A DNA stretch of 64,000 nucleotides, taken from assembly GCA_035502455.1 (NCBI GenBank), contig DATJUI010000019.1:13378-77377 (forward strand), read 5' to 3'. This DNA is from Thermoplasmata archaeon. Its GTDB lineage: Archaea; Thermoplasmatota; Thermoplasmata; Lutacidiplasmatales; UBA184. This document shows, piece after piece, positions 10,917-55,786 of the stretch. A program made the translations under genes and the position numbers. Positions within the stretch are counted from its first letter, which is position 1. The number at the start of each line of letters is the position of its first letter. Below the pieces are notes generated by a model. That model made no database searches. It was not told where the DNA came from and worked only from the letters and a program-made list of their open reading frames with translations.

Positions 10917-11552
10917 ATGCCGTCGAAGCTGGACGACCTCGTCTTCCGCGTCGAAGCGATCCTGTTCGCCGCCGGCCGGCCGATGAGCGTGAAGGAGCTC
11001 ACCGCGGCGCTGGGCCTCGACGACTACCGACCGGTCCAGCATGCCGTGCGGACGCTCGAGCAGACGTACGACCACCGCCAGTCGGCGCTCGAGGTCCGAC
11101 GGGTCGGCGACCGCTACGCGCTCCAGCTCCGCGAGCCGTACGTCCCCACGGTCCACGCCGTCACCCCCGTCGAGATGGCGCCGCGGACGCTGAAGGCGCT
11201 CACGGTCATCGCCTACCACCAGCCGATCCTCCAGAGCGTCCTCGTCCGGATGATCGGGGACGTCGCCTACGAGGAGGTCCAGCATCTGCGCGGCCTCGGG
11301 CTCGTCAGCACCGAGCCGAAGGGCTCGACCCTCGAGCTCGCGACGACCCGTCGGTTCGCCGAGTACTTCGGCATCGCCTCGACGCGCCCCGAGGAGATCC
11401 GCCGCTTCCTCGAGCAGAAGCTCGGGGTCCCGCCGGCGCCAGCCCCGGCCCCGGCGGAACCGGGCCCCGCCGGGCCGCCGGCCGATCCCCCCGCGCCCGA
11501 CGACGCCTCCCCGCCGCTCGAGGCGGCCCCGCCCCCCGCGCCGGCGGCCTAG
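10917..11552 (+). CDS. scpB: segregation and condensation protein B
   Basis: 211 aa; ScpB-like tandem winged-helix region (VEAILFAAGRPMSVKELTAALG...); Pro/Ala-rich tail; completes the smc-scpA-scpB operon. Confidence 0.85.
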   Translation: MPSKLDDLVFRVEAILFAAGRPMSVKELTAALGLDDYRPVQHAVRTLEQTYDHRQSALEVRRVGDRYALQLREPYVPTVHAVTPVEMAPRTLKALTVIAYHQPILQSVLVRMIGDVAYEEVQHLRGLGLVSTEPKGSTLELATTRRFAEYFGIASTRPEEIRRFLEQKLGVPPAPAPAPAEPGPAGPPADPPAPDDASPPLEAAPPPAPAA

Positions 11553-13906
11553 AGCGCGCCGCACTGGGGGCAGCGCACCGGCTCCGCCGGCCGGGCCGTC
11601 CCGCAGTACGGGCACTGGAACGTCGCGCCGGCGCTCCCGGGCGGGGCGGCCGGAGGGAGCGGCGGCGCCGCCGGCGGCGGGGACGGGGCGTGCGCCCCCC
11701 ACGGGACGGCGGCGGGCTTCGGCCGGCTCGGACGGACCAGCACGAGGACGAGGACCACGGCGACGGCGACCCCGACGCCGAAGATGATCTCGACCGTGGC
11801 CCACGGGAACGACGACCCGCCCGAGCTCGGGGGGATGCCGGGCGTGGGCCCCGTGTACACGTAGCCGGTGATCGTGCCGTTGTACAGCATGGCGAGCAGC
11901 GGCACCGCTTCGAGCGTCCCCCAGCCCGTGGTCGGGTCCCAGCCGGCGGCCGCCGCGAAGACGTAGTTGTTCCCCTCCACGACGTCGAGGAACGGGCTCG
12001 TCGGCACGCTCGGGTGGGCGGCGTAGAAGCTCGCCGACGCGTAGAGGGCCGGGTCGAGGTACCCGAGCGGGCGGAACGTGGCCAGCGAGTTGTCGCTGCG
12101 GACGGCGACCTCGTCGGCCACCAGGCCCGCGAAGGTCGGGGCGGCGATGCTCGTCCCCTCGAGGAGCTCGCCGAAGATCGCGCCCGTCGCGTTCGCAAAG
12201 ACGGTGACGATCGTCGTGTTCGCCGGGAACGCCACGTCCGGCTCGGCGCGATCGAGCACCCCGAGGCCCTGGGTCGCGGCCGCGCTCGCGATCGCCGGCT
12301 GGGCCGCCGAGTGGAACTGCCACGACGGCTCCGCGTAGACGGTGCTGAGGCCGCCTTCGCTGCCCGCGTACTCCCCCGGGCCGCCGAGCGTGTCGTACCA
12401 GGTCACCACGTTGCGGATGCCCGTGATGTTCCCGTCGAACTCGACGACGAAGCCGCCGGTCTCGTTGTACCACCCGGCCGGGACGCCGGACAGCGTGAGG
12501 GAGACGCCGCCGACGGCGATCGCCCCGCTCGTGTTGAACGCCGCGCTCGCCGGCCAGGACGGCCACGGGCCGGTCGCGCGGCCGGTGAGGCTGTCGGGCG
12601 CGTTGCCCTGGTCGCCGCTCGCGACCGAGATCGTCACGCCCGTCGCGGCCGCCTTGGCGAGCCCGGCGTCCCAGATCGCGTCGGTCGTGTCGGGCAGTCC
12701 GAAGGAGGCGCTGACGGCCGCGAGGCCGGCGGCCCCGTACGAGTAGTTGAGCGCGGCGCCGAGCTCGTACCCGAAGTCGTCCGCGATGTCCCCGAGCGTC
12801 GCGGAGCCAGTGACGAGGCTGCCCGAGAAGTAGAAATTGTAGAGTGGGGCGCCCGGCGCAAGGCTGCCCGCCATCTCGAGATCGAGGCAGTTCTCGACCT
12901 GGTCGAGGGTGCTGTCGTTGAGCCCGGTGTACGGGCCGGGCGGCGGAGGGGTGAGGCCGTCGAGGGTCACGGGGACCCCCGTCACGTTCGACACGGGCCA
13001 CCCCGGCCCGAGCGTGTGCTCGAGGTACCAGTCGACGACCGTCGGATCGAACGGCGCGAGGTCCGTGCCCGTCGACTCGTTCCAGCCGCTCGCGAGCAGC
13101 GTGGCGACCGCGACGTGCGTGGGGTACGTGGCGTTGAGGACGTCGCCGCCGGCCAGCAGTTCGCTCGCGCCCAGCGCCTCGGTGAAGTCGGAGCCCAGGA
13201 ACCACTGGGCGCCCGAGGTGTTGCCCTCGATGTACGCGGGGGCTGTCGCGGGATCGGTGAGCGGGACCGGCGCGGACGCCGTCATCTCGTACGAGAGCGC
13301 GGGGTCCGCGGCGTTCGAGAGGCCGCCGATCCCGGTCACGATCTTCGCGAGCGCGCTCGGCAGCGTGACGGCACCGACCGAGGTGTAGAGCGGCGAGGCG
13401 CCCGACGCGCCGAGGTCGTCGAGCTCGACCCCGAACATCGACTCCACCTCGCCCGCCGGGACGACCGCGCGGACGCCGAGATCGCCCGGCACGACCTCGA
13501 GGTCGGTCGCTCCGTGCCCGCTCAGGAAGGAAGACGCCTCCGCGACCGAGCTCGGGGGCGGGGCGAACTCGGCGTCGTACTCCGCCGAGGTAAGATAGTG
13601 GCCGTACTGCGGCGAGGCGGGATCCTCGATCGCCGCAAGGAACGCGGAGAGCCCACCCGGATCGGCCCCGGCGAGCGTCAGGGTGAGGCCGATGGGGGTG
13701 TCGGCGGCCAGGGCGAGCGGGTGGACGCCGGCCGGGACCGGCTGGGCGTCCGTGAGCGGTTCGGACGCGGCACCGGTCTCGGCGGCCGTCGGGCCGGGCC
13801 CGGCGGCCGCCGCTCCGACCGGATGCACGCTCGCGCACGCGCTCGCCACGACCAGGAACCCGGCGAGCACCGCGAGCGTCGCCCGTCGGGGGAGCATCGC
13901 CCGCAC
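11549..13906 (-). CDS. S53-family (sedolisin/kumamolisin-like) serine peptidase with signal peptide, C-terminal TM helix and terminal zinc ribbon
   Basis: 785 aa; signal peptide MRAMLPRRATLAVLAGFLVVASACAS; pro-kumamolisin activation domain; SGDQG and GTSIAAPTFAG catalytic motifs; more than 10 N-x-S/T sequons; TM segment IIFGVGVAVAVVLVLVLV; C-terminal CPYCG...CPQCG. Confidence 0.8.
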   Translation of the reverse strand: MRAMLPRRATLAVLAGFLVVASACASVHPVGAAAAGPGPTAAETGAASEPLTDAQPVPAGVHPLALAADTPIGLTLTLAGADPGGLSAFLAAIEDPASPQYGHYLTSAEYDAEFAPPPSSVAEASSFLSGHGATDLEVVPGDLGVRAVVPAGEVESMFGVELDDLGASGASPLYTSVGAVTLPSALAKIVTGIGGLSNAADPALSYEMTASAPVPLTDPATAPAYIEGNTSGAQWFLGSDFTEALGASELLAGGDVLNATYPTHVAVATLLASGWNESTGTDLAPFDPTVVDWYLEHTLGPGWPVSNVTGVPVTLDGLTPPPPGPYTGLNDSTLDQVENCLDLEMAGSLAPGAPLYNFYFSGSLVTGSATLGDIADDFGYELGAALNYSYGAAGLAAVSASFGLPDTTDAIWDAGLAKAAATGVTISVASGDQGNAPDSLTGRATGPWPSWPASAAFNTSGAIAVGGVSLTLSGVPAGWYNETGGFVVEFDGNITGIRNVVTWYDTLGGPGEYAGSEGGLSTVYAEPSWQFHSAAQPAIASAAATQGLGVLDRAEPDVAFPANTTIVTVFANATGAIFGELLEGTSIAAPTFAGLVADEVAVRSDNSLATFRPLGYLDPALYASASFYAAHPSVPTSPFLDVVEGNNYVFAAAAGWDPTTGWGTLEAVPLLAMLYNGTITGYVYTGPTPGIPPSSGGSSFPWATVEIIFGVGVAVAVVLVLVLVRPSRPKPAAVPWGAHAPSPPPAAPPLPPAAPPGSAGATFQCPYCGTARPAEPVRCPQCGAL

Positions 13907-13986
13907 CCACCCGCGCGCTCCTAATCAGGCGAGCGGTCGGACCGGGTCGAGCAATCCTTTAGCGGCGACCGGGTTAGCCCGCCGCG

Positions 13987-41305: not shown

Positions 41306-41521
41306 CTACTGGGTGCGGCCGGGAACGGCCGGTCCGCGGTGGACCTTGCGCGACGGCGGTCCGCGGTGCTCGATCGGGCTCTTCGTCCGGCGGGTCGACG
41401 ACTCGCAGTCGAGGCACATCCGCTCCTCGGGATCGAGGCACGAGCGGCAGACCGTCCGGCCGCAGACCGTGCAACCCAGCGAGGCCGGAGCCCCGCACCG
41501 CGCGCACTGCCCGACGAGCAC
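41306..41521 (-). CDS. small zinc-ribbon protein
   Basis: 71 aa; CARCG...CTVCG...CRSC...CLDC Cys pairs. Confidence 0.4.
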   Translation of the reverse strand: MLVGQCARCGAPASLGCTVCGRTVCRSCLDPEERMCLDCESSTRRTKSPIEHRGPPSRKVHRGPAVPGRTQ

Positions 41522-45801: not shown

Positions 45802-46278
45802 CTACTTTCGGGCCCGGCCACCGGGACCGGGGCGCCTGTGCGTCCCTCGTCCACGAGGAGGTGGCCGTCTTGAGGATGTGGGCTCTCTTCCGAGACGTAT
45901 CCAGATTCCGTCGGGATCCTTGACCATCGCTGCCCATCCCCCAGTGGATTCCGGGGTGAACCGCGTGGCTCTACCTCCGTTTCGCAGGAGTTTCCGGTAC
46001 GCTCTATCGAGAGTGTAAGCCGGAGACGCACCGAGCGAGACGTCGATGTGATCCAGCTCGTCTCCCTTGCGGTACTTGGACGAGAACATGGAGCTTCGGG
46101 GATACCAGTTGAGTTCGAGGAGACGACGCGAGGTGGGATCCTGGAGGAGAGCGGTCACTCCGCCCCCCCAGCTACGACAATCATCCCTCCGGATCACGCG
46201 AAGTCCTAGTGCTCTCGTGTAGAACCTCACCGAACGCGGGAGATTCCCCACACGAATGCCGACACACTCGAGCCGCAT
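45802..46278 (-). CDS. VOC-family (glyoxalase/bleomycin-resistance fold) protein
   Basis: MRLECVGIRVGNLPRSVRFYTRALGL ... DPDGIWIRL beta-alpha-beta-beta-beta signature; C-terminal 30 aa probably read-through into the repeat. Confidence 0.6.
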   Translation of the reverse strand: MRLECVGIRVGNLPRSVRFYTRALGLRVIRRDDCRSWGGGVTALLQDPTSRRLLELNWYPRSSMFSSKYRKGDELDHIDVSLGASPAYTLDRAYRKLLRNGGRATRFTPESTGGWAAMVKDPDGIWIRLGREPTSSRRPPPRGRGTHRRPGPGGRARK

Positions 46279-46481
46279 CCTGAAGCATAGCGATCGAGGC
46301 TACTTAGGACCGAACCCAGTAGTTTCGACGCGCCCCCAGAGGTGCCGACCGAGACGCTAGATGGGTCCGCTGCGTACGGCCCCCAGCGAACTTTTCGCTG
46401 AGGGATTCGAACAAACGGCGATTCGACCACTAGCACGGGTGCTCTCCGAGCCGGCTCGATGAGCTATGTTCCCGACACGAC

Positions 46482-46508
46482 TATATTGATGTAGTGTATT
46501 GATGTGTA
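46482..46508 (+). promoter_or_regulatory. putative vapBC promoter/operator: two attgatgt direct repeats plus ctatatt TATA-like element
   Basis: attgatgt at 46485-46492 and 46498-46505, 5-15 nt upstream of vapB; RHH antitoxins typically autoregulate via repeats like this. Confidence 0.35.
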
Positions 46509-46511
46509 ACT

Positions 46512-46757
46512 GTGTCCGCAAAGACGGTGGCGTTGGACCCGGAGGCCTATGATATGCTGCGGCGCCAACGGCGAAGCGGCGAGACCTTTAGCGATGCGGT
46601 CAAGCGCCTTTCCGGCAAGCGCCGGTCGATCCTGGACTTTGCCGGGATATGGAAGGACATCCCCGACGAAGACCTCGAGAGGCTCCGCTCCTTCCTCGCA
46701 GAAGGACGGCGTCGGGACCGCGCGCGAATCGAGCGCCTGTTCCAGAAGGGGGGCTGA
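46512..46757 (+). CDS. vapB: type II antitoxin VapB (ribbon-helix-helix/COG4423-like)
   Basis: 81 aa; precedes the PIN gene with a 3-nt gap. Confidence 0.65.
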   Translation: MSAKTVALDPEAYDMLRRQRRSGETFSDAVKRLSGKRRSILDFAGIWKDIPDEDLERLRSFLAEGRRRDRARIERLFQKGG

Positions 46758-46760
46758 ACG

Positions 46761-47147
46761 GTGCGCTGCTTCGATTCAACTTTCCTTATCGATTACGTCC
46801 GGGGCGACGCGGACGCGGTCGGGAAAGTGAGAGAGCTCGTGGAGTTGGGTGAACGTCTCACGACCCCGTCCGCGGCTGCGGCCGAGGTCCTCGTCGGAGC
46901 TCACTTCCGGGGGCGGGGAGAACTCTCGCGAACTCTGGAATTCCTCGACCGCCTAGAGATCCTTCCCTTCGACATCGCCGAGGCAACCGAAGCCGGCAGG
47001 ATCGGTGCCGAGGCGCTTCGGCGGGGCGCCCCCATAGCGGGCAACGACCTGTTGGTCGCAGCGACCGCGCGACATCGCGGAGGGATACTCGTGAGCCGGG
47101 ACGGAGTCTTCTCGCAAGTGCCGGGCCTGGCGGTGGAAACGTACTGA
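46761..47147 (+). CDS. vapC: type II toxin VapC (PIN-domain ribonuclease)
   Basis: 128 aa; acidic PIN residues at conserved positions (CFDSTFLIDY ... AEV ... GNDLLVAATA ... SRDG). Confidence 0.8.
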   Translation: MRCFDSTFLIDYVRGDADAVGKVRELVELGERLTTPSAAAAEVLVGAHFRGRGELSRTLEFLDRLEILPFDIAEATEAGRIGAEALRRGAPIAGNDLLVAATARHRGGILVSRDGVFSQVPGLAVETY

Positions 47148-47182
47148 CGGATGGAGGGGATTCGTTACGGGGGCCGTAACGG

Positions 47183-47197
47183 ATCCCAGCACGGGCG
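47183..47197 (+). repeat. repeat copy 2: 15-nt exact match to the tRNA-Arg 3' end (atcccagcacgggcg) with about 45 nt of degenerate flank
   Basis: Identical to 45648-45662; follows vapC by 36 nt. Confidence 0.5.
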
Positions 47198-47486
47198 CCT
47201 TCCTCGGACCCGTGAGGAGCGGCGTGAGATTCGAGCACGATGAGACTCGGGCCCCCCCCGCGTCCAAGTGCGGGGTCTCGGCTGCTGGAGTCGAGGTGCC
47301 GTCGAGGTCGCCCGCTGACCCATGTGGGTGAGACGAACGTCTCGAAGTGCTCCCGATGAAGGTTCGCACCCGTGCAGCCTTGCCTCCTCCGCGGGACGTT
47401 ACCCCCGGTTTCAGATTCTGGGGAACCGCGGGTCAAGGAGGTCGAATGGCAGCCATTCAGCGAATCCGCTCGTCTTGCGGCGGGGG

Positions 47487-48320
47487 CTAGGTCTTCGGCT
47501 GGGCTCGCCCGACTGCGAAGGGACAAGCGAATCCCCAAATGATGATGACTACTAATGATCCCAGAATAAGAGGGAAGACGAATCTCGGTATCGAGTTCCC
47601 CGTAAAGATCCAAGCTGTCGCGGCTCCGCCGATAAAGCCTACGGTTCCTCCAATAAACCCTACGATCGCCATCCAATTTGGAAATACGCGGCTGTTCCAG
47701 AAGGCGACACTGAAGAGCGACACGCCCAAACCGAGGGCCGAGAAACCGAGGACCTCCCAACCATCCGTGATGTTGTACCAAAGCGCGGCCTCGTACGCAG
47801 CCGTCGCCGATGACGGAGCCGTGGTCGTCGATATGGCGTTGAGCGCGCTGTAGCTCGCGGCATTCGACACGGCCAACACGAATGCGCCGAAGAGGAACAC
47901 GAGCATGGAGGCCCATACCAGACCTCGACTTTGGGACTTGAGCGCCCCGCCGAGATACGTCGCGAAGGGCGTAACTCCCAAGGCGAAGACCAGGACCCAC
48001 AAATCGCTGAATGCGGTCGCGGCCTTGTTCGAATTGAACACGGCAAGCTGGTTCGACGGTGTCGAAGGTTCGGGTATGGTGACGAGTCCGGCGATGGTGA
48101 TTGCCGAGATCAGACCCGCCAAGATGGCGGCGATGAGAAAACCAGTCGGTCGGCCGGCGTCCGTGGGTATCGAGGTGTTTTCGGTTTCCGGAGGCTCGGG
48201 CAACATCGCGGCGACCGGGTTCTGAGGGATAAACGTTCCGAAGTCGCAAACCCTCTCTTTCGCCGAGCGGGGCGAGGAGTCGGGACCCGCCAGCGCCTGT
48301 CCGCCCAACGCCGGTCTCAA
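47487..48320 (-). CDS. hypothetical polytopic membrane protein (start possibly the internal Met at 48206)
   Basis: About 6 predicted TM helices; about 55-58 % GC, lower than the genome background. Confidence 0.55.
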   Translation of the reverse strand: MRPALGGQALAGPDSSPRSAKERVCDFGTFIPQNPVAAMLPEPPETENTSIPTDAGRPTGFLIAAILAGLISAITIAGLVTIPEPSTPSNQLAVFNSNKAATAFSDLWVLVFALGVTPFATYLGGALKSQSRGLVWASMLVFLFGAFVLAVSNAASYSALNAISTTTAPSSATAAYEAALWYNITDGWEVLGFSALGLGVSLFSVAFWNSRVFPNWMAIVGFIGGTVGFIGGAATAWIFTGNSIPRFVFPLILGSLVVIIIWGFACPFAVGRAQPKT

Positions 48321-48672
48321 GATCTCGGGCGGCCGGCCCGCTGCGCGGCGTCCGTGTCCGAGGCGCTTGTGCTCGGTCCTGAGCCCCTCGACTCGACCCG
48401 GGATTGAGGGAGGTGTCGATCACAAATCCACAAGTGAGGTCATGGACCGGTTCCACGACCTCACGGCGGGTACGTGCTCCCGCGTCCCGAGCGGGCGCGG
48501 TGGAGTCGAATACGTAGCTGCTCGAATCCCAGTAGGGGCGCCTACCCTATCTCTGCCCGCGAGCGTGGACACGAAGGTAGAGAGACCTACGACACCTCGC
48601 GCCCCCACGGACTCGCACGGGGAGTCGCGCGTCGCCGGGAGTTGGGATGTCGCACCCCGGCTCCAAGACCGG

Positions 48673-49290
48673 TCAGGCGGGCTTCTTGGCGATGACAAAA
48701 TCCATCGCATGGCGGTGGGGAACGCCACTCGAGTTGCAATCGAACTCTACCTCCCCCGAGTCCAGGATCTGCCAGTCCCCGTAGTACCCGAGCAGCTCGC
48801 CGGGGCGATAGGGGTGCTCCGCGGGATCCATTTCGGGCGGAGGATCGAGATAGGGCTTGGGAACAAAGGCGTTCACCGCATGAATGCCTCCCCGAACGGT
48901 GTGGGCTTGGAAGTGAGCAAAACGGGCCGGTCGGGCGCCCCGCGGGAGATTGTTGAGGACCCCGGAACTGAAGACCACATCGAATCGACGGCTCAGTTGG
49001 TACGATCGGATGTCGCCGATGCGAAAGCGCACCGCTAGACCGAGACGAGCGGCCCTTCGCTCCCCCTTGACCAGCCCGACGCGAGAGACGTCGACGCCAA
49101 GAACTCGAAACCCGTGACGGGCGAAGTGAATCGAATCTCGCCCCTCACCCGAGCCGAGATCGAGCAGCGTCGGCGACTTCGCCGGAAGGGTCCGGGCGAC
49201 TCGAACGACCTCGCGTGCCAGTCCGGTCGGCCTCGTCCCCCAGTACCAGCCCGGCCGTGAGTACCGCTGGTCGTAACTCGGTTCCCGCAT
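48673..49290 (-). CDS. class I SAM-dependent methyltransferase (TehB/thiopurine-MTase-like)
   Basis: LLDLGSGEGRDSIHFARHGFRVLGVDVS motif I plus post-I acidic residue; WYWG N-terminal motif. Confidence 0.75.
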   Translation of the reverse strand: MREPSYDQRYSRPGWYWGTRPTGLAREVVRVARTLPAKSPTLLDLGSGEGRDSIHFARHGFRVLGVDVSRVGLVKGERRAARLGLAVRFRIGDIRSYQLSRRFDVVFSSGVLNNLPRGARPARFAHFQAHTVRGGIHAVNAFVPKPYLDPPPEMDPAEHPYRPGELLGYYGDWQILDSGEVEFDCNSSGVPHRHAMDFVIAKKPA

Positions 49291-49403
49291 CGGTTACGTT
49301 CGCCCCCGACGGGCTATGTGTCGCGAGACTTGGGATTAGGCTATCTTGGGACTCACGACTCGTCGTCGCGGCCCGGGGGAGCGGCTCAGGACGGGGATTC
49401 TAG

Positions 49404-49555
49404 CCATCGGCGGCCGAATCGCAGCACGGGCGAGTTTCTCCCTCCACCCGAGAGGTTCGGGATCGGGTCGCTGCGCCTGTCCCGCTCGGAAGGGATCGAT
49501 GCCTCCCGCACAGTCCCACCCGGACCTCCGCATAGAGCCGTCGGGGAAAGCCCGA
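49404..49555 (+). repeat. repeat copy 3: tRNA-Arg T-loop/acceptor 3' fragment plus about 130 nt of flank, about 75 % identical to copy 1
   Basis: cgaatcGcagcacgggcgagtt (one mismatch to tRNA) then co-linear similarity to 45663-45795. Confidence 0.55.
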
Positions 49556-49664
49556 ACCGGCCTCCCCGGGCATGGGGAGTCGGATCGACGATCCGTGCCA
49601 CGCGGTGACGGCCGCCGTCCCTCGCCGCATTGGCCTCCACCCGGACGGGGGTCCGCACGCGCGT

Positions 49665-50723
49665 TCAATGCTTCGCGTAGTACTCCGCCACCGCGCGGAA
49701 CGACTCATTGGGCTCCCAGGGCATGTCGGGGTAGGTCGCCCCATGACCCCGTTCCAGGTAGCGAGCGAGGCTCGGGGAGGCCGTGTCCACGTCGAACCGT
49801 GGCTCCTCGTCGTAGGGCGTAATCTGCGATTGAAAGGTGCTAACGAAGCCGCCCAAGACGCCGGCTCGCTCGATCCGGTCCAATTGGGCGACCAGCTTCT
49901 GGGCCTGGGACTTTTCGTCTCGGACGAGGGGTGTCTTCAGCCGGGGGCGCACGAATCGGCCGATGAGGGGGAGTTGATGCAGGAGCTGAGAGCGGACATC
50001 GATCGGCGAGGGTTTGAGACCCGCGGAGTCCAGGAACCCATCGGCGCCCGGACCGTCGTCCGCCGTGGAGAATCCGAACTCCGTGATGACGACCGGCTTG
50101 CCCGTGGCGATGGCCGGACGGAGCATCTCGGTCCAGCGGTCCGCGATGCGGGCGGTAAGGTAGTGGTCCACCCCGACGAAGTCGAAAGCAGACCAGTCGA
50201 CTCCCTCCCAGACGAGCGACGCGTAGGTGAGTCGTCCGCGATACTCGCGTTGGACGGCCTTCACGAGTCGGGTGAGTAGCTCGTTCAGCGGGCGATTGTG
50301 CCGCCCACTCTTCACGGTGGGAAAGAACTGCGGGCTCCGGACCCGGGCTCTCATGGTCCGGCCGGGAATGACTCCCTCGTTGAACAGCGTGGCTTCCATC
50401 GCTACGCCGAGCACCACCCGGTCCGGAGCCTCCTTGCGAAGCGGCTCGAGCGCCCTGGCCGCCCGGATCAGGTAGCTCGCTGAGGTCTGGGGGCTACGGT
50501 CCCAGCACTGGGGAAAGATCCAGGTCTCGAGCCCTTCCGCGAGGGCCGCCCTGCCCGCGATCACCAGTCGTGCGGGATCCTTGCCGACGATTCGCACCGC
50601 GGTACAGTGCAGGTCGCGCCGGATGATCCCGAGCTCGTGGCGGACGTTCTCCGCCCGGAAATCCGGTCGCCAGTTCATCCCGTAGACGACGCCGGCGTCG
50701 TAGCAGACACCCTTCAGCTTCAC
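49665..50723 (-). CDS. TIM-barrel glycoside hydrolase-like protein (GH-A clan-like, ITEFG nucleophile motif)
   Basis: 352 aa; VVITEFGFS resembles the clan GH-A catalytic nucleophile strand; family not assignable by eye. Confidence 0.55.
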   Translation of the reverse strand: MKLKGVCYDAGVVYGMNWRPDFRAENVRHELGIIRRDLHCTAVRIVGKDPARLVIAGRAALAEGLETWIFPQCWDRSPQTSASYLIRAARALEPLRKEAPDRVVLGVAMEATLFNEGVIPGRTMRARVRSPQFFPTVKSGRHNRPLNELLTRLVKAVQREYRGRLTYASLVWEGVDWSAFDFVGVDHYLTARIADRWTEMLRPAIATGKPVVITEFGFSTADDGPGADGFLDSAGLKPSPIDVRSQLLHQLPLIGRFVRPRLKTPLVRDEKSQAQKLVAQLDRIERAGVLGGFVSTFQSQITPYDEEPRFDVDTASPSLARYLERGHGATYPDMPWEPNESFRAVAEYYAKH

Positions 50724-50918
50724 GCGCGCGGCGCTCCGTCGACCCGGCGCTCCCGTAAATCATCGTCGCGGAGTTGGACGCGGGCGCCGGTGGAGACGAT
50801 CGGACTCGAACTGAGTCGTCCGGCCGAAACGCGCCGATCGAGAGTCTCGGTCGGACCCCCGTACGGGTGCGTGGAAACTACGGAACCCGAGCTCGGCGGG
50901 ACGTTCGACCCACTGGGG

Positions 50919-51653
50919 CTACGTGGGGTCCTTGAGCCCGAGCAGCAACCCCCGGCCCGGAGTTAGGCCTCGCCGCAGGAAGCGGGCGGTCAGTCCGGCC
51001 TCCTCCATGAGTCGCACCAGCCGGCTTCGGGGTACGAGGAGGCCGATGTCCACCTCCTCGAGATGCTCCACGCGGCGCCCCGTTCTTCCGATGAGGTAGT
51101 GATAGTGGACCGCCGAGCGTCCCCCCCGCCGCGAAGAGAACGCCATGCGGGCGACCGTGACCGAGGGGCTCGTCCGAGTCAGCAGGTGAACGTACCCCGA
51201 GCGGAAGTCCGAGGGATCGATCCACGGCTCCACGATGACGACGCCGCCCGGCTGCAGGTGACGGGCGAAGTTCGAGAACGTCGCGGCGAGCTCCCGTTCG
51301 GTCTTGAGGTGACCGATCGCACTGTAGAGGCAGCTTACCACGTCAAAAGTCTCGTCGAGACGAAAGCTCCGCATGTCCCCGGGAATCAGCCGGACCCGGG
51401 GCAGACGACGCCGCGCCACCCGGAGCATCTCGCGACTCACGTCAACGCCCGTGACCGTGTAGTCACGCCGGAGGAAGCTCAGATGTCGTCCAGTACCGCA
51501 CGCCACATCCAGCCACGCCCGTCCTCGAGAACGGCCGAACTGGCGAGCGAGCGATTCGAGAACGCGGGCTTCCGAACGGTAGTCCTTCCCTCCCACCAGA
51601 TCGTCGTAGTAGAGCGCCAGTCGATGGAACATGAGGGGCTTGACTCGGGCCAT
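50919..51653 (-). CDS. TylM1/DesVI-family dTDP-aminosugar N,N-dimethyltransferase-like methyltransferase
   Basis: Co-linear similarity to TylM1 along the whole length: LALYYDDL, WLDVACGTGRHLSFL (vs LLDVACGTGMHLRHL), GDMRSFRLDETFDVVSCLYSAIGHL (vs GDMRDFSLGRRFSAVTCMFSSIGHL), GGVVIVEPWIDPSDFRSGYV (vs DGVVVVEPWWFPENFTPGYV), HYHYL (vs HYLV). Confidence 0.8.
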   Translation of the reverse strand: MARVKPLMFHRLALYYDDLVGGKDYRSEARVLESLARQFGRSRGRAWLDVACGTGRHLSFLRRDYTVTGVDVSREMLRVARRRLPRVRLIPGDMRSFRLDETFDVVSCLYSAIGHLKTERELAATFSNFARHLQPGGVVIVEPWIDPSDFRSGYVHLLTRTSPSVTVARMAFSSRRGGRSAVHYHYLIGRTGRRVEHLEEVDIGLLVPRSRLVRLMEEAGLTARFLRRGLTPGRGLLLGLKDPT

Positions 51654-52123
51654 ATCGAGCTCCCTCGACCGCTTCGGGCCCCTACGTGAACCCCTGGGTC
51701 ATGAATAAGAACGGGGTGCCACCGACGACCGGCTGGCTTCCCAACCTGGGAGTGCCGCCGTCCCGCCGGCTCTACCCGCATGCCGGATCGGATCCGGCCG
51801 AGATCGTGGGCCGGATGCCGGCTCTCGCCGTGCGCCCTCCTCTCGAGAGCGCGCTCGAGAGGCGGAGGGAGCTCGATCGTCGACCGGGGGGCGGGGACGC
51901 TCGACCTCGGACCCGCCGCACGCGTCTCTCATTCACCCATCGATCCCTCGTCAGGACCTCACGGGCGCCGGCCGCGATCGAACTCCGCTTCCGGAAGCTT
52001 CCCCCAATTTCTCGTCGATGCGGCGATGCTACGTTGCAAGTACGCGGTGGGCCACGGGGACGAGCCCTACGCGCCCGGTCCTGCCGAGGTCGAGGGGGTC
52101 CGGTCACGGGGGGGCGCTGCCCA

Positions 52124-52615
52124 TCAGGAGTTCAGGGCGGTGTCCCTGCGACGGGGGGTCGGAGCGTCGTCACCCCTTCCCGCTTGCGAAGTCCGTTCGT
52201 CCAAGCGCTTGAGGAGGTCCCGGAGCTGGAGGAGGTCTTGGGTCTCCCAGCCATCGAAAACCCCCTGGTGGTGGGCCAGCCGCTTGTGGACATGACTGTG
52301 GACGTGCAAGCCAACGCGAGTCGTCTGCACACGTACAAGACGGCGGTCCTCCCGGTCGCGGTGGCGACGTACGAGGTGGTCGCGCTCCATCTGGTCAATG
52401 ATCCCGGTCACGTGAGCCGGGCTGACGCCCAGAAACTGGGCGAGTTCACTCTGGGTGATCCCGCCGGGGGTCTGAGCGGCGTGGAGGGTCAGGTGGTGCA
52501 ACATCGGGAGCTGGGAGTGCAAGTGCGGACCGAACCGGGGGACCGCCCGGCGGAACACCCGACGGAGCAATCCCAGCGTCTCCTCGATCAGCTCGTCCCG
52601 ATCCGACTCGATCAT
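52124..52615 (-). CDS. MarR-family transcriptional regulator
   Basis: 163 aa winged HTH (ITQSELAQFLGVSPAHVTGIIDQMERDHLVRRHRDREDRRLVRVQTT). Confidence 0.8.
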   Translation of the reverse strand: MIESDRDELIEETLGLLRRVFRRAVPRFGPHLHSQLPMLHHLTLHAAQTPGGITQSELAQFLGVSPAHVTGIIDQMERDHLVRRHRDREDRRLVRVQTTRVGLHVHSHVHKRLAHHQGVFDGWETQDLLQLRDLLKRLDERTSQAGRGDDAPTPRRRDTALNS

Positions 52616-52660
52616 CCCGTCGTTCCCTCATCGCCCCGAAGGGCATAGAACCTTCGCCTC

Positions 52661-52705
52661 CAAATCATTCAATCAAAAATGTTTTAATACTGAATGAATA
52701 TAGAG
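52661..52705. promoter_or_regulatory. AT-rich divergent promoter/operator between marR and the ABC exporter; inverted repeat cattca...tgaatg and TATA-like aatatag
   Basis: Sequence tcattcaatcaaaaatgttttaatactgaatgaatatag; the ABC ATPase ATG is about 10 nt downstream. Confidence 0.4.
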
Positions 52706-52710
52706 GACGC

Positions 52711-53802
52711 ATGGCCGCAGCCGCCCGCCCTGCGAGCACCGTCCCCCGTGTCACCTACGGACCGTCCCGTTCCGACGCGATGATCGAGGTCCAGGATCTC
52801 GTCAAGGTCTACGGCGGCGGTCGCGGCCCGACCGCCGAGCCCGAGGTCCGAGCGGTCGACGGCATCAGCTTCTCGGTCTCCGAGGGAGAGTTCTTCGGGT
52901 TCCTCGGCCCGAACGGTTCGGGCAAGACCACGACGATGAAGATTCTCACGACCCTGCTCGGCCGGACGAGCGGACGGGTTCGGGTCGCGGGCTTCGACAT
53001 CGACCACGATGGGGCCCGGATGCGGAAGCAGATCGGCTACACCGGGCAGTCGATCGGGGTGGACGGGGATCTCACCGGCCGGGAGAACCTCATGCTGATG
53101 GGCCGACTGTACCACTTGCCCGGTCCTCTGGTCCGGGACCGAGTGGAAGACCTGCTCCGGCTCTTGCAGCTAACCGAAGCGGCCGATCGTCCCGCGTTCA
53201 CGTACTCGGGAGGGATGCGACGCCGGCTCGACCTCGGCTCGGCGCTCGTCCACCGGCCGAAGCTCCTGTTCCTTGATGAACCGACCACCGGATTGGACCC
53301 TCAGACCCGCAACGCCCTGTGGGAGTACCTCCGAGAGCTCCACGTCCGGGACGGGGTCACGATCTTCCTCACGACGCAGTACATGGAGGAGGCCGACCGG
53401 CTCTGCGAGCGCGTCGCGATCATCGACCACGGCCGTATCGTCGCGCAGGGAACGCCGGCGCAGCTCAAAGCCGAAATCGGGGCGGACAGCGTCACGATTC
53501 GCCTCCCGCTCGACGAGCGGCTCGAGGCGCGGAGACGGGAGGCGCTCGAGCTCGTCCGAACGGTCCCGGAAGTGGTCGGCGCTGCGCCCTTTGAGTTCGG
53601 GGTGACCGTCCAGGCCCGAAACGGAGGGGCGGCTCTCGTCGAGATCCTGCGGCGCCTCGAGTCGGGTCATGTCCCGGTGAAGGAAGTGGCGGTCTCGCCC
53701 CCGACCCTCGACCAGGTCTTCCTCCAGCACACGGGTCGCGAGATGCGCGCGGAGGAAGTGAGGCCGATGACCCGCATGGCCCGCCGCGGGATGGGACGGT
53801 AG
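52711..53802 (+). CDS. ABC transporter ATP-binding protein, DrrA-like (ABC-2 exporter ATPase)
   Basis: Walker A GPNGSGKTT, signature YSGGMRRRL, Walker B LLFLDEPTTGLD; DrrA-type C-terminal extension. Confidence 0.85.
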   Translation: MAAAARPASTVPRVTYGPSRSDAMIEVQDLVKVYGGGRGPTAEPEVRAVDGISFSVSEGEFFGFLGPNGSGKTTTMKILTTLLGRTSGRVRVAGFDIDHDGARMRKQIGYTGQSIGVDGDLTGRENLMLMGRLYHLPGPLVRDRVEDLLRLLQLTEAADRPAFTYSGGMRRRLDLGSALVHRPKLLFLDEPTTGLDPQTRNALWEYLRELHVRDGVTIFLTTQYMEEADRLCERVAIIDHGRIVAQGTPAQLKAEIGADSVTIRLPLDERLEARRREALELVRTVPEVVGAAPFEFGVTVQARNGGAALVEILRRLESGHVPVKEVAVSPPTLDQVFLQHTGREMRAEEVRPMTRMARRGMGR

Positions 53803-53803
53803 C

Positions 53804-54670
53804 ATGGCGACAGGGACCGGCCACCGCTACGAGCTCCCCGAGCTCTCGGTACCCTCGCCCGGATTCGGCTCCTTCTTCTCGGATATCGCGTGGGTCTGCT
53901 ACCGGAGTTTGAGGAAGCTCTCCCGCAACCCACTTCTCCTGATGTTCACGTTGATCATGCCGCTCATCTGGCTCGGGATGTTCAGCCAGACCTTCGGAAC
54001 GGTGTTCTCGAGGGCGGAGAGCGCCCCCGGTACCGCTCCCCTGCCGTACGACTACATCGCGGTTCTCTTGCCCGGGATTGCCATCATGACCGCGATCCAG
54101 GCGGCGTCACAGTCCGGGTTTGTGATGGTCTCGGACATCGAAACGGGCTTCATGGACAAGTTCTTCGTCGCTCCGATTCGCCGCAGTTCGGTCCTGGTCG
54201 GAAAGCTCCTCGGCGACGCCATCCGGATGGCGGGACAGGCGATCATCGTGCTCGGGATCGCCTACGTCTTCACGCTCGCCTTCGGCTGGAAGATCCCATT
54301 CGCGACGGGCATCCTGGGGGGCCTCCTGATCGTCCTGCTCGCCGCGCTCTTCGGGGTCGCGTTCTCGGGCCTGTCGAACTCGGTCGCGCTGTTCACGAAG
54401 AACACCGAGACGACGATGATGGTGGCGTTCACGCTCACCTTCCCGCTGCTCTTCCTCTCGACGGCGATGGTACCGCTCAGTCTCCTTCCGGGGTGGGTCC
54501 AGACGTTCTCGATGTTCAACCCGGTGAGCTACGTCGCCACCGCCTCGCGCGCGATGATCCTCACGGGCTTCAACTGGCCCGAGGTCGGCCAAGCGTTCGC
54601 AGCGATCGCGATTGTCGGAGTGCTGCTCAACGCGCTCGCGGTGTACGCGTTCCGGCGACAGGGCCGCTAG
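53804..54670 (+). CDS. ABC-2 family transporter permease (DrrB-like)
   Basis: 288 aa, 6 TM helices; starts 2 nt after the ATPase stop. Confidence 0.8.
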   Translation: MATGTGHRYELPELSVPSPGFGSFFSDIAWVCYRSLRKLSRNPLLLMFTLIMPLIWLGMFSQTFGTVFSRAESAPGTAPLPYDYIAVLLPGIAIMTAIQAASQSGFVMVSDIETGFMDKFFVAPIRRSSVLVGKLLGDAIRMAGQAIIVLGIAYVFTLAFGWKIPFATGILGGLLIVLLAALFGVAFSGLSNSVALFTKNTETTMMVAFTLTFPLLFLSTAMVPLSLLPGWVQTFSMFNPVSYVATASRAMILTGFNWPEVGQAFAAIAIVGVLLNALAVYAFRRQGR

Positions 54671-54677
54671 GGTGGAG

Positions 54678-55091
54678 ATGTCGACCGATCCGGAGCTCAC
54701 GCCCGGGGGAGGTCCCATCCAGCGCGGGACCGAGGCACCGTCCGACGAGCTCCCGGTGGGCTCGCGGAACGCGCCGAAGGCGCGCCGAGCCGCTCGCGAC
54801 CCGAAGCGACCGGGCGAACGATGCCGTGCGGCCCCGGGTCACTGGATCCCGGTCGTTGATCGGGCCCAGTGCGAGGGCAAAGCCGAATGCGTCGACGTTT
54901 GTCCGTACGCGGTCTTCCAGATCGGAACCCTCACGGACGAAGAGTATCGATCGCTGAGCTACCTGGGACGGGCCCGGGCGCGCCACCACCAGTTCCAGAC
55001 CTCTCGCACGCCCCGTGCCGCGGAGTGTCGGGCATGCGGGCTCTGCGTGGTCGCGTGCCCCGAGGATGCGCTGAAGCTGATCCGAAGCTGA
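54678..55091 (+). CDS. 4Fe-4S ferredoxin-domain protein with disordered N-terminus
   Basis: Two cluster-binding cysteine motifs, CEGKAECVDVCP and CRACGLCVVACP. Confidence 0.6.
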   Translation: MSTDPELTPGGGPIQRGTEAPSDELPVGSRNAPKARRAARDPKRPGERCRAAPGHWIPVVDRAQCEGKAECVDVCPYAVFQIGTLTDEEYRSLSYLGRARARHHQFQTSRTPRAAECRACGLCVVACPEDALKLIRS

Positions 55092-55408
55092 CGCGGGCGG
55101 GGTCCGACGCGAAGGGAACCCTCCTCCGGTTCGGCCAGCTCTACGGGCCGGGGACCTACTCTGAGTCAAGGCAACCGGCCCCCCCGCGGATCCACGTAGA
55201 CTCGGCGGCGCGTCGAACGTATGCGGCGCTGGGATCACCCCCGGGAGTCGTCACACTCGTGGACGAGTGAGCCACGACCGAGCGGGACCTCCAGCCGTTG
55301 AGACGGGGGTCGGCCCTTCGGTCATCGCCCGTCGGTTCCTTTCCCTGCTGGACCGGCGAGAAGGGCGGCGGAGTTCGGTCGCGCCCCGAAACCGGTCCGT
55401 CGGCGCCG

Positions 55409-55786
55409 TTACCTCGCCTTTCCGGCCCGATGTCTGCGGTCGGCGTCCCGCACGAGCTTCTTGATCAGCGGAATCGGAATCGGCTCGCCGAGCGGGAAGC
55501 GAAGCGCGGAGTTCGCGTTCTGGTATCTGGCAATCTCCTCCGCGTGAGGTGCTAGGTCCTTGGGTCGAAGGAAGAGCCCGATGCTCGCCCGCTGCAGCCC
55601 AAAGTAGCAGAGCCGTCGTTCGATCCCGGCTTCTCCCTGGTAGCTGTAGAACGGCATTCCGTAGCTGATGCTCTCGTCGGCCCCGGGGGCGGCCTCTCGG
55701 ATGGCCGCTCGGAGCTGCTTCAGCACGCTCCGCGTTCCGACCGGGGCCGATCGGATGTATTGATCGACGCTCTTCGCGGGGGGCAC
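55409..55786 (-). CDS. DUF1801 (YdhG-like) domain protein
   Basis: 125 aa; DQYIRSAPVGTRSVLKQLRAAIREAAPGADESISYGMPFY matches the DUF1801 N-terminal pattern. Confidence 0.6.
   Translation of the reverse strand: MPPAKSVDQYIRSAPVGTRSVLKQLRAAIREAAPGADESISYGMPFYSYQGEAGIERRLCYFGLQRASIGLFLRPKDLAPHAEEIARYQNANSALRFPLGEPIPIPLIKKLVRDADRRHRAGKAR

Follow-up and report, generated by a model that had tools for sequence, protein, structure and literature searches.

The stretch of DNA analysed here (the window; 64,000 nucleotides of contig DATJUI010000019.1, assembly GCA_035502455.1, to which all position numbers refer) comes from a Thermoplasmata archaeon and has a G+C content of 70-77% over most of its length. 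On its minus strand it carries a gene for a peptidase of family S53, the product of which is predicted to be exported and ends in a membrane helix that is followed by a Pro-rich spacer and a putative Cys4 zinc ribbon. This protein had been the subject of an original prediction made from the DNA sequence, and every element of that description is present, since the open reading frame (ORF), the domains, the sequons, the helices, the ribbon and the overlap with the neighbouring scpB gene could each be located in the sequence. The S53 enzyme class itself is known; what is new here is the combination of such an enzyme with a membrane anchor that is conserved and a ribbon predicted to be cytoplasmic. 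The gene and the parts of its product are as follows:

11549..13906, minus strand: S53 peptidase gene, encoding a 785-residue pre-pro-peptidase with a predicted C-terminal transmembrane anchor and a terminal Cys4 ribbon (ORF, Pfam, family alignment)
13817..13906, minus strand: N-terminal signal-like segment, residues 1-30, basic MLPRR followed by a hydrophobic stretch (hydropathy, charge)
13292..13759, minus strand: pro-kumamolisin-type activation domain, residues 50-205 (Pfam PF09286, model confidence as pLDDT, Foldseek)
11867..13231, minus strand: S53 catalytic domain, residues 226-680 (alignment, match to human tripeptidyl-peptidase 1, Foldseek)
12893-12895, minus strand: catalytic Glu338 (family alignment)
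12881-12883, minus strand: catalytic Asp342 (family alignment)
12611-12613, minus strand: oxyanion Asp432 (family alignment)
12149-12151, minus strand: catalytic Ser586 (family alignment)
11804..11866, minus strand: predicted extracellular stalk, residues 681-701, with a Y-t-G-P-T-P-G-L-P motif and [VI]-P-W just before the membrane (family conservation)
11735..11803, minus strand: predicted transmembrane helix, residues 702-724, with conserved IFGVG, A716 and L719 (hydropathy, AlphaFold2 model, conservation)
11627..11734, minus strand: predicted cytoplasmic juxtamembrane motifs (A)RPxR and VP[WFY]GA[QH] with a variable Pro/Gly-rich spacer, residues 725-760 (conservation, AlphaFold2 model)
11552..11626, minus strand: putative terminal Cys4 zinc ribbon ATFQCPYCGTARPAEPVRCPQCGAL, residues 761-785 (pattern, conservation)

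Both sequence comparison and structure modelling indicate that the ectodomain is a bona fide S53 zymogen with an intact active site, as had been proposed, and the zymogen is presumably active. The Pfam model Pro-kuma_activ (PF09286) matches residues 66-198 with an E value of 8.9e-19 (68.6 bits, cut-off 23.5), and a prodomain of this type is present in all of the 120 best homologues (48-61% identity, 754-808 amino acids), the set used for family comparisons throughout. Peptidase_S8 of Pfam gave only a weak match under its cut-off (residues 392-597). E338 and D342 (in the motif E-x-x-L-D, as ENSLDLEM or ENCLDLE), D432 (in SGDQGNAP) and S586 (in GTS) are invariant in alignments of 19 and of 120 members. 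Human tripeptidyl-peptidase 1 (TPP1) is the only solved relative found by sequence; in the alignment, the SGD and GTS motifs of the two proteins coincide. An AlphaFold2 model that was built from 120 sequences has a mean predicted local distance difference test score (pLDDT) of 83.8 and a predicted template modelling score of 0.81, with block means of about 88-98 over residues 51-200. Its best Foldseek match is intact pro-kumamolisin, 1t1e (E 7.7e-27, TM-target 0.75), and the TPP1 precursor 3ee6, kumamolisin-As 1siu and Pseudomonas sedolisin 1ga4 are further top matches; S8 subtilases match far more weakly, with E values of 1e-8 or worse. The protein thus has the pro-kumamolisin domain, the Glu-Asp-Ser triad with the oxyanion Asp and the subtilisin-like fold in common with kumamolisin, sedolisin/PSCP and human TPP1. 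Its predicted catalytic domain, however, is about 100 residues longer and rich in sequons, and it is extended by the transmembrane helix and the cytoplasmic Cys4 ribbon, whereas none of the matched solved structures 1t1e, 3ee6 and 1ga4 includes a membrane anchor. To our knowledge, the characterised members of family S53 are soluble secreted or lysosomal enzymes, and none of those with a matched structure is known to carry a tail of this kind.

Three properties of the sequence fit the orientation that had been proposed, with the catalytic domain outside and the ribbon inside the cell: hydropathy, charge bias and the distribution of N-glycosylation sequons all agree with a predicted N-out, C-in topology. 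Two hydrophobic segments are present, at residues 8-35, approximately, and 699-729. The first of them belongs to a signal-like N-terminus and agrees with the signal peptide of the original prediction, a call that is based on hydropathy and charge only. This segment probably serves as a Sec signal or else as an N-terminal anchor, because the twin arginine and Cys24, the candidate lipobox cysteine, are not conserved in the family alignment; for the same reason a Tat signal or a lipobox is unlikely, and the residue at position -3 of Cys24 is Ala. The more than ten sequons that had been announced are indeed there: 12 of the 20 Asn residues stand in an N-x-S/T sequon, as compared to 2.8 +/- 1.5 in shuffled sequences, and none of 2000 shuffles reached 12. 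All 12 lie within the catalytic domain (residues 226-680). Across the 120 sequences there are 11-21 sequons per protein (mean 15.1), on 51% of all Asn residues; 14 sequon positions are common to at least 60 sequences, and the sequons at N276 and N563 are found in every one. The last 85 residues, by contrast, contain no sequon in any of the 120 homologues. The mean net charge is +2.65 in the 16 residues after the helix and 0.06 in the 15 residues before it. A consistent reading of these data is that of a type-I bitopic glycoprotein, of which the prodomain and the catalytic domain would face outwards and the last 60 or so residues would lie within the cell.

The C-terminal tail is the part of the protein that sets the family apart. 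In the window it runs from RPSRPK through the Pro-rich spacer and ATFQCPYCGTARPAEPVRCPQCGAL to the stop codon, and the helix, a variable spacer and the ribbon are found in this order at the C-terminus of all 120 homologues. When one genome of each GTDB species was scanned, 290 loci were found to encode relatives; in all 82 loci with a complete 3' end of the gene, the protein terminates with C-x2-C-x10-C-x2-C and exactly three further residues, down to an overall identity of 42%. The claim that a helix, a Pro-rich spacer and a Cys4 ribbon are translated at the C-terminus is thereby borne out. C765, C768, C779 and C782 are invariant and the inner spacing is always 10, both in the 120 homologues and in the 82 loci. 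The family consensus of the ribbon, [A]TF[L]CPYCGxxRPAEPVRCPxCGA[LFY]-COOH, is near-invariant, and the loop residues R772, P773, E775, P776, V777 and R778 are each conserved to at least 90%. The distance from the end of the helix to the first Cys varies between 29 and 62 residues, and VP[WFY]GA[QH] stands about 10 residues past ARPxR, at the predicted cytoplasmic side of the helix. The frequency of the majority residue is 0.88 in the ribbon, as compared to 0.71 in the catalytic domain, 0.62 in the helix, 0.59 in the prodomain and 0.40 in the spacer. The ribbon is under purifying selection at the protein level: pairwise differences at codon positions 1, 2 and 3 amount to 0.17, 0.15 and 0.48, and its invariant residues are encoded by two to five synonymous codons (for the invariant Arg, CGG 25, CGC 19, CGT 16, CGA 18 and AGG 2). 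Because so many synonymous codons are used, selection acts on the peptide and not on the DNA that overlaps scpB.

Since models of zinc ribbons match below their thresholds (E 0.05-0.3), the ribbon was identified by its CPxCG-x10-CPxCG pattern and by its conservation; it would presumably bind zinc. With Zn_Ribbon_1 (PF13240), Zn_ribbon_3 (PF13248), DZR (PF12773) and DUF7577 it shares the paired CPxCG knuckles, spaced by about 10 residues, and an adjoining aromatic/hydrophobic pair, and, like these generic ribbons, which are typically fused to membrane segments of surface proteins, it stands next to a transmembrane helix. It differs from them in its score (13.7 bits, gathering threshold 25), in the near-invariant RPAEPVR loop and in its restriction to a single family. 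Matches to proteins in the PDB are only marginal. The best of them for the ribbon profile is the N-terminal C4 finger of RadA/Sms (5lkm, E 0.0025), in which ATF-C-x2-C-G...R-C-P-x-C-G recurs with the same spacing; this finger, however, occupies the N-terminus of a soluble helicase of DNA repair, and the resemblance is both short and marginal.

The restriction to one family became apparent when a profile of the ribbon only, 31 positions long, was run against 1.84 billion representative proteins. The search gave 127 matches at E <= 1e-3. The CPYCGxxRPxEPxRCPxCG subtype was found only on the S53 family of the window or on N-truncated fragments of that family, as confirmed by blastp; we conclude from this that the subtype is private to one protein family. 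The short matches P0135, P0146, P0148 and P0163, which might have been taken for a modular tail on other ectodomains, are N-truncated S53 proteins. A second copy of the ribbon does not occur in the 64-kb window. The top match of the profile, P0121, is a repetitive or low-complexity false positive: it has 3932 residues and 65 partial matches and lacks the C-x2-C...C-x2-C pattern. The window also encodes a small double zinc-finger protein of 71 residues (41306-41521, minus strand) with four C-x2-C pairs (CARCG...CTVCG...CRSC...CLDC), which is unrelated in sequence to the ribbon of the protease.

The S53 gene is a core gene at a fixed locus, with one copy per locus. The order leuS-dcd-Memo-HIT-S53-scpB-scpA-smc is kept in 85 of 85 loci, as far as the contigs reach, and ScpB was seen in 77 of them. 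The neighbours are better conserved than the S53 ectodomain (55-85% identity for SMC as compared to 42-61%). The best 80 of the 290 loci all belong to metagenome-assembled genomes (MAGs) of Thermoplasmata or Thermoplasmatota, except for one record labelled 'bacterium' that has the same block of genes. In this record (L049, DAIDCO010000009.1, 'bacterium isolate clean3188'), the archaeal block is complete and ScpB, ScpA and SMC are 75-90% identical to those of the window; the public record is probably mislabelled. Among the MAGs of the relatives are AcS/SubAcS, GcC5-34 (labelled Lutacidiplasmatales) and UBA184, and the AcS/SubAcS names follow the same pattern as AcS3-62, the type genome of the Lutacidiplasmatales (PMC9287336). 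For this clade, an acid-soil ecology has been described, and extracellular S53 peptidases have been reported to be prevalent in acidophilic Lutacidiplasmatales and Thermoplasmatota (PMC9287336). One MAG, SMAG_U12138, contains two complete leuS...smc blocks, each with an S53 gene (L011 and L043; the products are 53% and 47% identical to the protein of the window). The presence of the whole syntenic block on both contigs suggests a mixed binning of two related genomes rather than paralogy. The ribbon tails of L043 and of another locus, L041, are identical.

The remaining matches of the ribbon profile point to a theme that extends beyond family S53. Among them are archaeal proteins with a signal, an ectodomain of Ig-like, PKD, beta-helix or CarboxypepD_reg type, a transmembrane helix, a low-complexity linker and, at the end, at least one ribbon, and 29 proteins have their ribbons N-terminal to the first transmembrane helix. 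Eight giant proteins of about 1300-2500 residues (P0125, P0152, P0158, P0167, P0189, P0190, P0214 and P0219) combine ribbon arrays N-terminal to a transmembrane helix with an ectodomain of very large size and, as C-terminus, a PEF-CTERM-like sequence (...IPEF, then a helix and RKRK); their ribbons lie on the presumed cytoplasmic side, at the opposite end of the protein from the S53 ribbon. Exactly the layout of the S53 protein is seen in a trypsin-like S1C protease of 493 residues from an archaeal contig with 40% G+C: it consists of a signal, the protease domain, a transmembrane helix (residues 398-424), KRKK, a spacer and YKFCWNCGRRIPADAKICPYCGASQEE. The sources assign its family to Desulfurococcales, Sulfolobales and Fervidicoccaceae and name it only 'trypsin-like peptidase domain-containing protein'; all 32 members examined have a transmembrane helix and a terminal ribbon that is specific to this family. 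The two protease families thus resemble each other in the signal or anchor, the protease domain, the membrane helix, the basic clamp, the low-complexity spacer and a C-x2-C-x10-C-x2-C at the extreme C-terminus, but the catalytic folds are unrelated and the S1C ribbon has its own sequence, [YF]K[YF]C[WI]NCG[RK]xIPxDxxxCPYCG. Moreover, the S1C gene is followed in 4 of 4 loci by a gene on the same strand for a second surface protein that ends in a transmembrane helix and one or more ribbons, whereas the S53 gene has no such neighbour. Genes containing tetratricopeptide repeats (TPR) were found near the pair in 2 of these 4 loci. The pair occupies L086:3513-4994 and L086:5001-6971 and is also present in L087, L088 and L089; these stretches have 40-52% G+C, and the second surface protein carries one or two ribbons and, in the three cases counted, 5-15 sequons. 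A third group of proteases, S1 with an Ig-like domain, has yet another ribbon sequence.

At least three archaeal lineages thus have an exo-protease with a C-terminal transmembrane helix and a terminal Cys4 ribbon, predicted to be cytoplasmic, although the catalytic domains are unrelated. This qualifies the view that the S53 protein has an atypical architecture: it is atypical when compared with the matched solved S53 structures, but the tail is present in every family member examined and belongs to a recurrent archaeal theme. The comparison of domain architectures bears out both sides, the ribbon subtype being found only with the S53 family and the other proteases carrying their own helix-ribbon tails. 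In the open-access literature, we found no description of an S53 peptidase with transmembrane helix and ribbon or of ribbon tails on archaeal exo-proteases; apparently, the combination of transmembrane helix and cytoplasmic ribbon on surface proteins is a wider archaeal theme that has gone undescribed.

How might such a protein work? The explanation that we regard as the best, and to which we give somewhat more than an even chance, is a surface-tethered, N-glycosylated acid peptidase of family S53, the ribbon of which docks a cytoplasmic partner. The N-terminal signal would export the pre-pro-enzyme, the prodomain and the catalytic domain would fold outside the cell, and the ectodomain would become glycosylated. 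By analogy with other S53 enzymes, the prodomain may then be removed autocatalytically at low external pH. The C-terminal helix would act as a stop-transfer segment that anchors the mature catalytic domain at the surface, so that peptides would be released beside the cell, and proteolysis retained in this way might feed peptide uptake or process surface proteins. In the cytoplasm, about 60 residues would remain: the basic ARPxR clamp, the VPWGAQ motif, a flexible Pro/Gly spacer and the 24-residue Cys4 ribbon. In our view, the ribbon most likely serves as a docking knob, to which a conserved partner in the cytoplasm or at the membrane periphery would bind and so position, cluster or retain the protease or control its turnover. 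Taken alone, this docking step is more tentative than the explanation as a whole, and we rate it at somewhat less than an even chance. The conservation of the ribbon is consistent with the idea that the surface protease is coupled to an intracellular partner, as had been suggested in the original prediction.

Several points weigh against this explanation. No docking partner can be named, and the conserved neighbourhood is a collinear housekeeping block that gives no functional clue. The spacer is predicted to be disordered in the AlphaFold2 model, and the ribbon is modelled as two short hairpins with a moderate pLDDT of about 75. The ribbon does not reach the thresholds of the Pfam zinc-ribbon models (DUF7577, E 0.05, and Zn_Ribbon_1, E 0.057, each with 13.7 bits at cut-offs of 28 and 25, respectively), and a rubredoxin-like model of NCBIfam also stays under its threshold (12.6 as compared to 45 bits). 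Many of the conserved residues in a domain of 24 residues could be purely structural, and signal cleavage, glycosylation, zinc binding and activity at acidic pH are predictions.

The rival explanations differ in what they make of the tail. The ribbon could be a passive topogenic lock, a fast-folding metal-clamped knob that keeps the tail cytoplasmic and stabilises the anchoring by a single helix without any specific partner. This would agree with the presence of ribbon tails, at one terminus or the other but always on the inferred cytoplasmic side, in many archaeal surface proteins that are unrelated to each other, with the minimal size of the domain and with a spacer that varies in length and sequence. 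However, the transmembrane helix and the conserved positive-inside clamp ARPxR should already suffice to fix the topology, and a passive lock should tolerate changes in the loop, whereas RPAEPVR is near-invariant even where the identity of the catalytic domain has fallen to 42%. Moreover, the ribbon sequence is distinctive in each protease family and is kept within it. These same observations favour docking, since the loops of generic ribbons differ from protein to protein; as a lead only, docking is also favoured by the RadA C4 finger as the closest solved sequence, a finger reported to mediate protein-protein contact. We consider a passive lock unlikely. Alternatively, the stalk, the helix and the tail could relay to the cytoplasm what state the ectodomain is in, or they could be the substrate of an intramembrane protease that releases the protease or a ribbon peptide. 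It is in line with such signalling or regulated shedding that the conservation of the stalk, of the helix (IFGVG, A716, L719) and of the juxtamembrane motifs goes well past that of a generic anchor, and that the crenarchaeal protease is encoded together with a second ribbon-tailed surface protein, with the TPR-containing genes nearby in half of the loci. As the tail has no output domain beyond the 24 residues, and neither a regulator nor an intramembrane protease is linked to the gene in the conserved neighbourhood, this possibility appears quite improbable.

The position of the gene next to scpB, scpA and smc, kept in all loci that reach that far, might suggest that the ribbon binds DNA or the SMC-ScpAB complex and links the protease to the nucleoid or to chromosome segregation, the more so as many zinc ribbons bind nucleic acids. 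Yet the entire block from leuS to smc is collinear across the clade, so that the adjacency says nothing specific, and a functional link drawn from synteny was rejected for this reason. In addition, S53 and scpB are convergent and not co-transcribed, their 4-nucleotide overlap is not conserved, and with only two Arg and one Glu the ribbon would be a weak basis for DNA binding. Such a link is very improbable. We give just as little credit to a sorting signal that is cleaved by an archaeosortase (PGF/PEF-CTERM-like) or a similar enzyme, with removal of the tail during lipid anchoring. A hydrophobic helix with basic residues near the C-terminus does resemble the tripartite signals, a conserved Pro-rich motif stands just upstream of the helix, and PGF-CTERM/archaeosortase A likewise serves the surface retention of glycosylated proteins. 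But none of the *-CTERM sorting models of NCBIfam matches at E <= 1, the weak rubredoxin-like match being the only one returned, and where a PGF or PEF motif would be expected, the family consensus reads [VI]PW..I..IFGVG. Moreover, 61 residues follow the helix, among them the most conserved and most strongly selected segment of the protein, whereas the PEF-like termini among the other ribbon-profile matches stop right after the basic cluster. The hydrophobic segment is thus not a PGF-type signal, one of two findings that would have spoken against the original prediction. The other, a tail of 60 codons that escapes translation owing to a frameshift or a wrongly called stop, has a negligible probability: nothing was found in its favour, the frame and the terminus are the same in 120 of 120 proteins and in 82 of 82 independent assemblies, and the codons show a pattern of synonymous substitution.

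On the predicted topology, the most strongly selected part of this extracellular protease, a knob of 24 residues, lies inside the cell. The enzyme as such is ordinary; this placement is what is unusual, and it implies that the protease is controlled or used from within the cell. The single-copy, fixed-locus S53 protein of a Thermoplasmata clade that includes the Lutacidiplasmatales is predicted to be a membrane-tethered enzyme; public annotation names these proteins by their prodomain only. Since protease families of Crenarchaeota have the same type of tail, the ribbon may mark a general way to manage surface enzymes in archaea, many of which have no cell wall. A still broader idea is that ribbon tails are the recognition handle of a general archaeal system, as yet undescribed, in which a factor inside the cell grasps type-I or type-II surface proteins to position, cluster or extract them or to sort them, for instance to vesicles or division sites. 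We consider this idea unlikely; its clients would include at least three unrelated families of exo-proteases, and the S53 ribbon would be the most tightly co-evolved example. If it were true, it would be a prokaryotic counterpart of the sorting of furin-like eukaryotic proteases by their cytoplasmic tails, which bind intracellular partners. Furin and the other proprotein convertases and site-1 protease (S1P), the latter among the distant Foldseek fold matches, also consist of a signal, an inhibitory prodomain, a catalytic domain of subtilisin fold, a single transmembrane helix and a short cytoplasmic tail. They are eukaryotic members of family S8 (His-Asp-Ser), however, with linear sorting motifs instead of a zinc ribbon in the tail, and the similarity is one of analogy and not of homology. 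For the search for a partner, residues 761-785 are a small and well-defined bait.

Two further features lie at the 3' end of the S53 gene:

10917-11552, plus strand: scpB, convergent with the S53 gene
11549..11552, no strand: CTAG palindrome with both convergent stop codons, the 4-nucleotide overlap of S53 and scpB (sequence; overlap absent from some homologous loci)

As described earlier, the ORF at 11549-13906 is convergent to scpB and overlaps it by four nucleotides, with both stop codons inside the CTAG. The overlap also exists in L001 and L002, but it is not a conserved property of the locus, for the two genes are separated by 37-60 nucleotides in L003 and L004. Opposite the 3' flank of the protease gene, scpB encodes the C-terminus of ScpB (11400-11552, plus strand), a Pro/Ala-rich low-complexity tail of about 45 residues, PPAPAPAPAEPGPAGPPADPPAPDDASPPLEAAPPPAPAA. 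At its other end, the S53 gene has two candidate start codons (13895-13925): the length of 785 residues applies if translation starts at GTG 13906, whereas the identical public protein P0001 has 782 residues, which fits ATG 13897. P0001 is annotated as 'protease pro-enzyme activation domain-containing protein [Thermoplasmata archaeon]' and no more. An AGGAG motif is located at 13919-13923, upstream of both candidates, and an A/T-rich 'ctaaaggatt' lies about 50 nucleotides upstream within the 80-nucleotide divergent spacer between the S53 gene and the HIT gene.

Away from this locus, the region 46000-55500 of the window has a lower G+C content (62-68%) than the rest (72-77%). Judged by their translations, ORFs in it resemble a PIN/VapC-type protein (46761-47147) and S-adenosylmethionine-dependent methyltransferases (48673-49290 and 50919-51653). 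Others look like a glycoside hydrolase at 49665-50723 and a MarR-type regulator at 52124-52615, and a pair at 52711-54670 looks like an ABC ATPase with its permease. This region is probably an accessory or acquired island.

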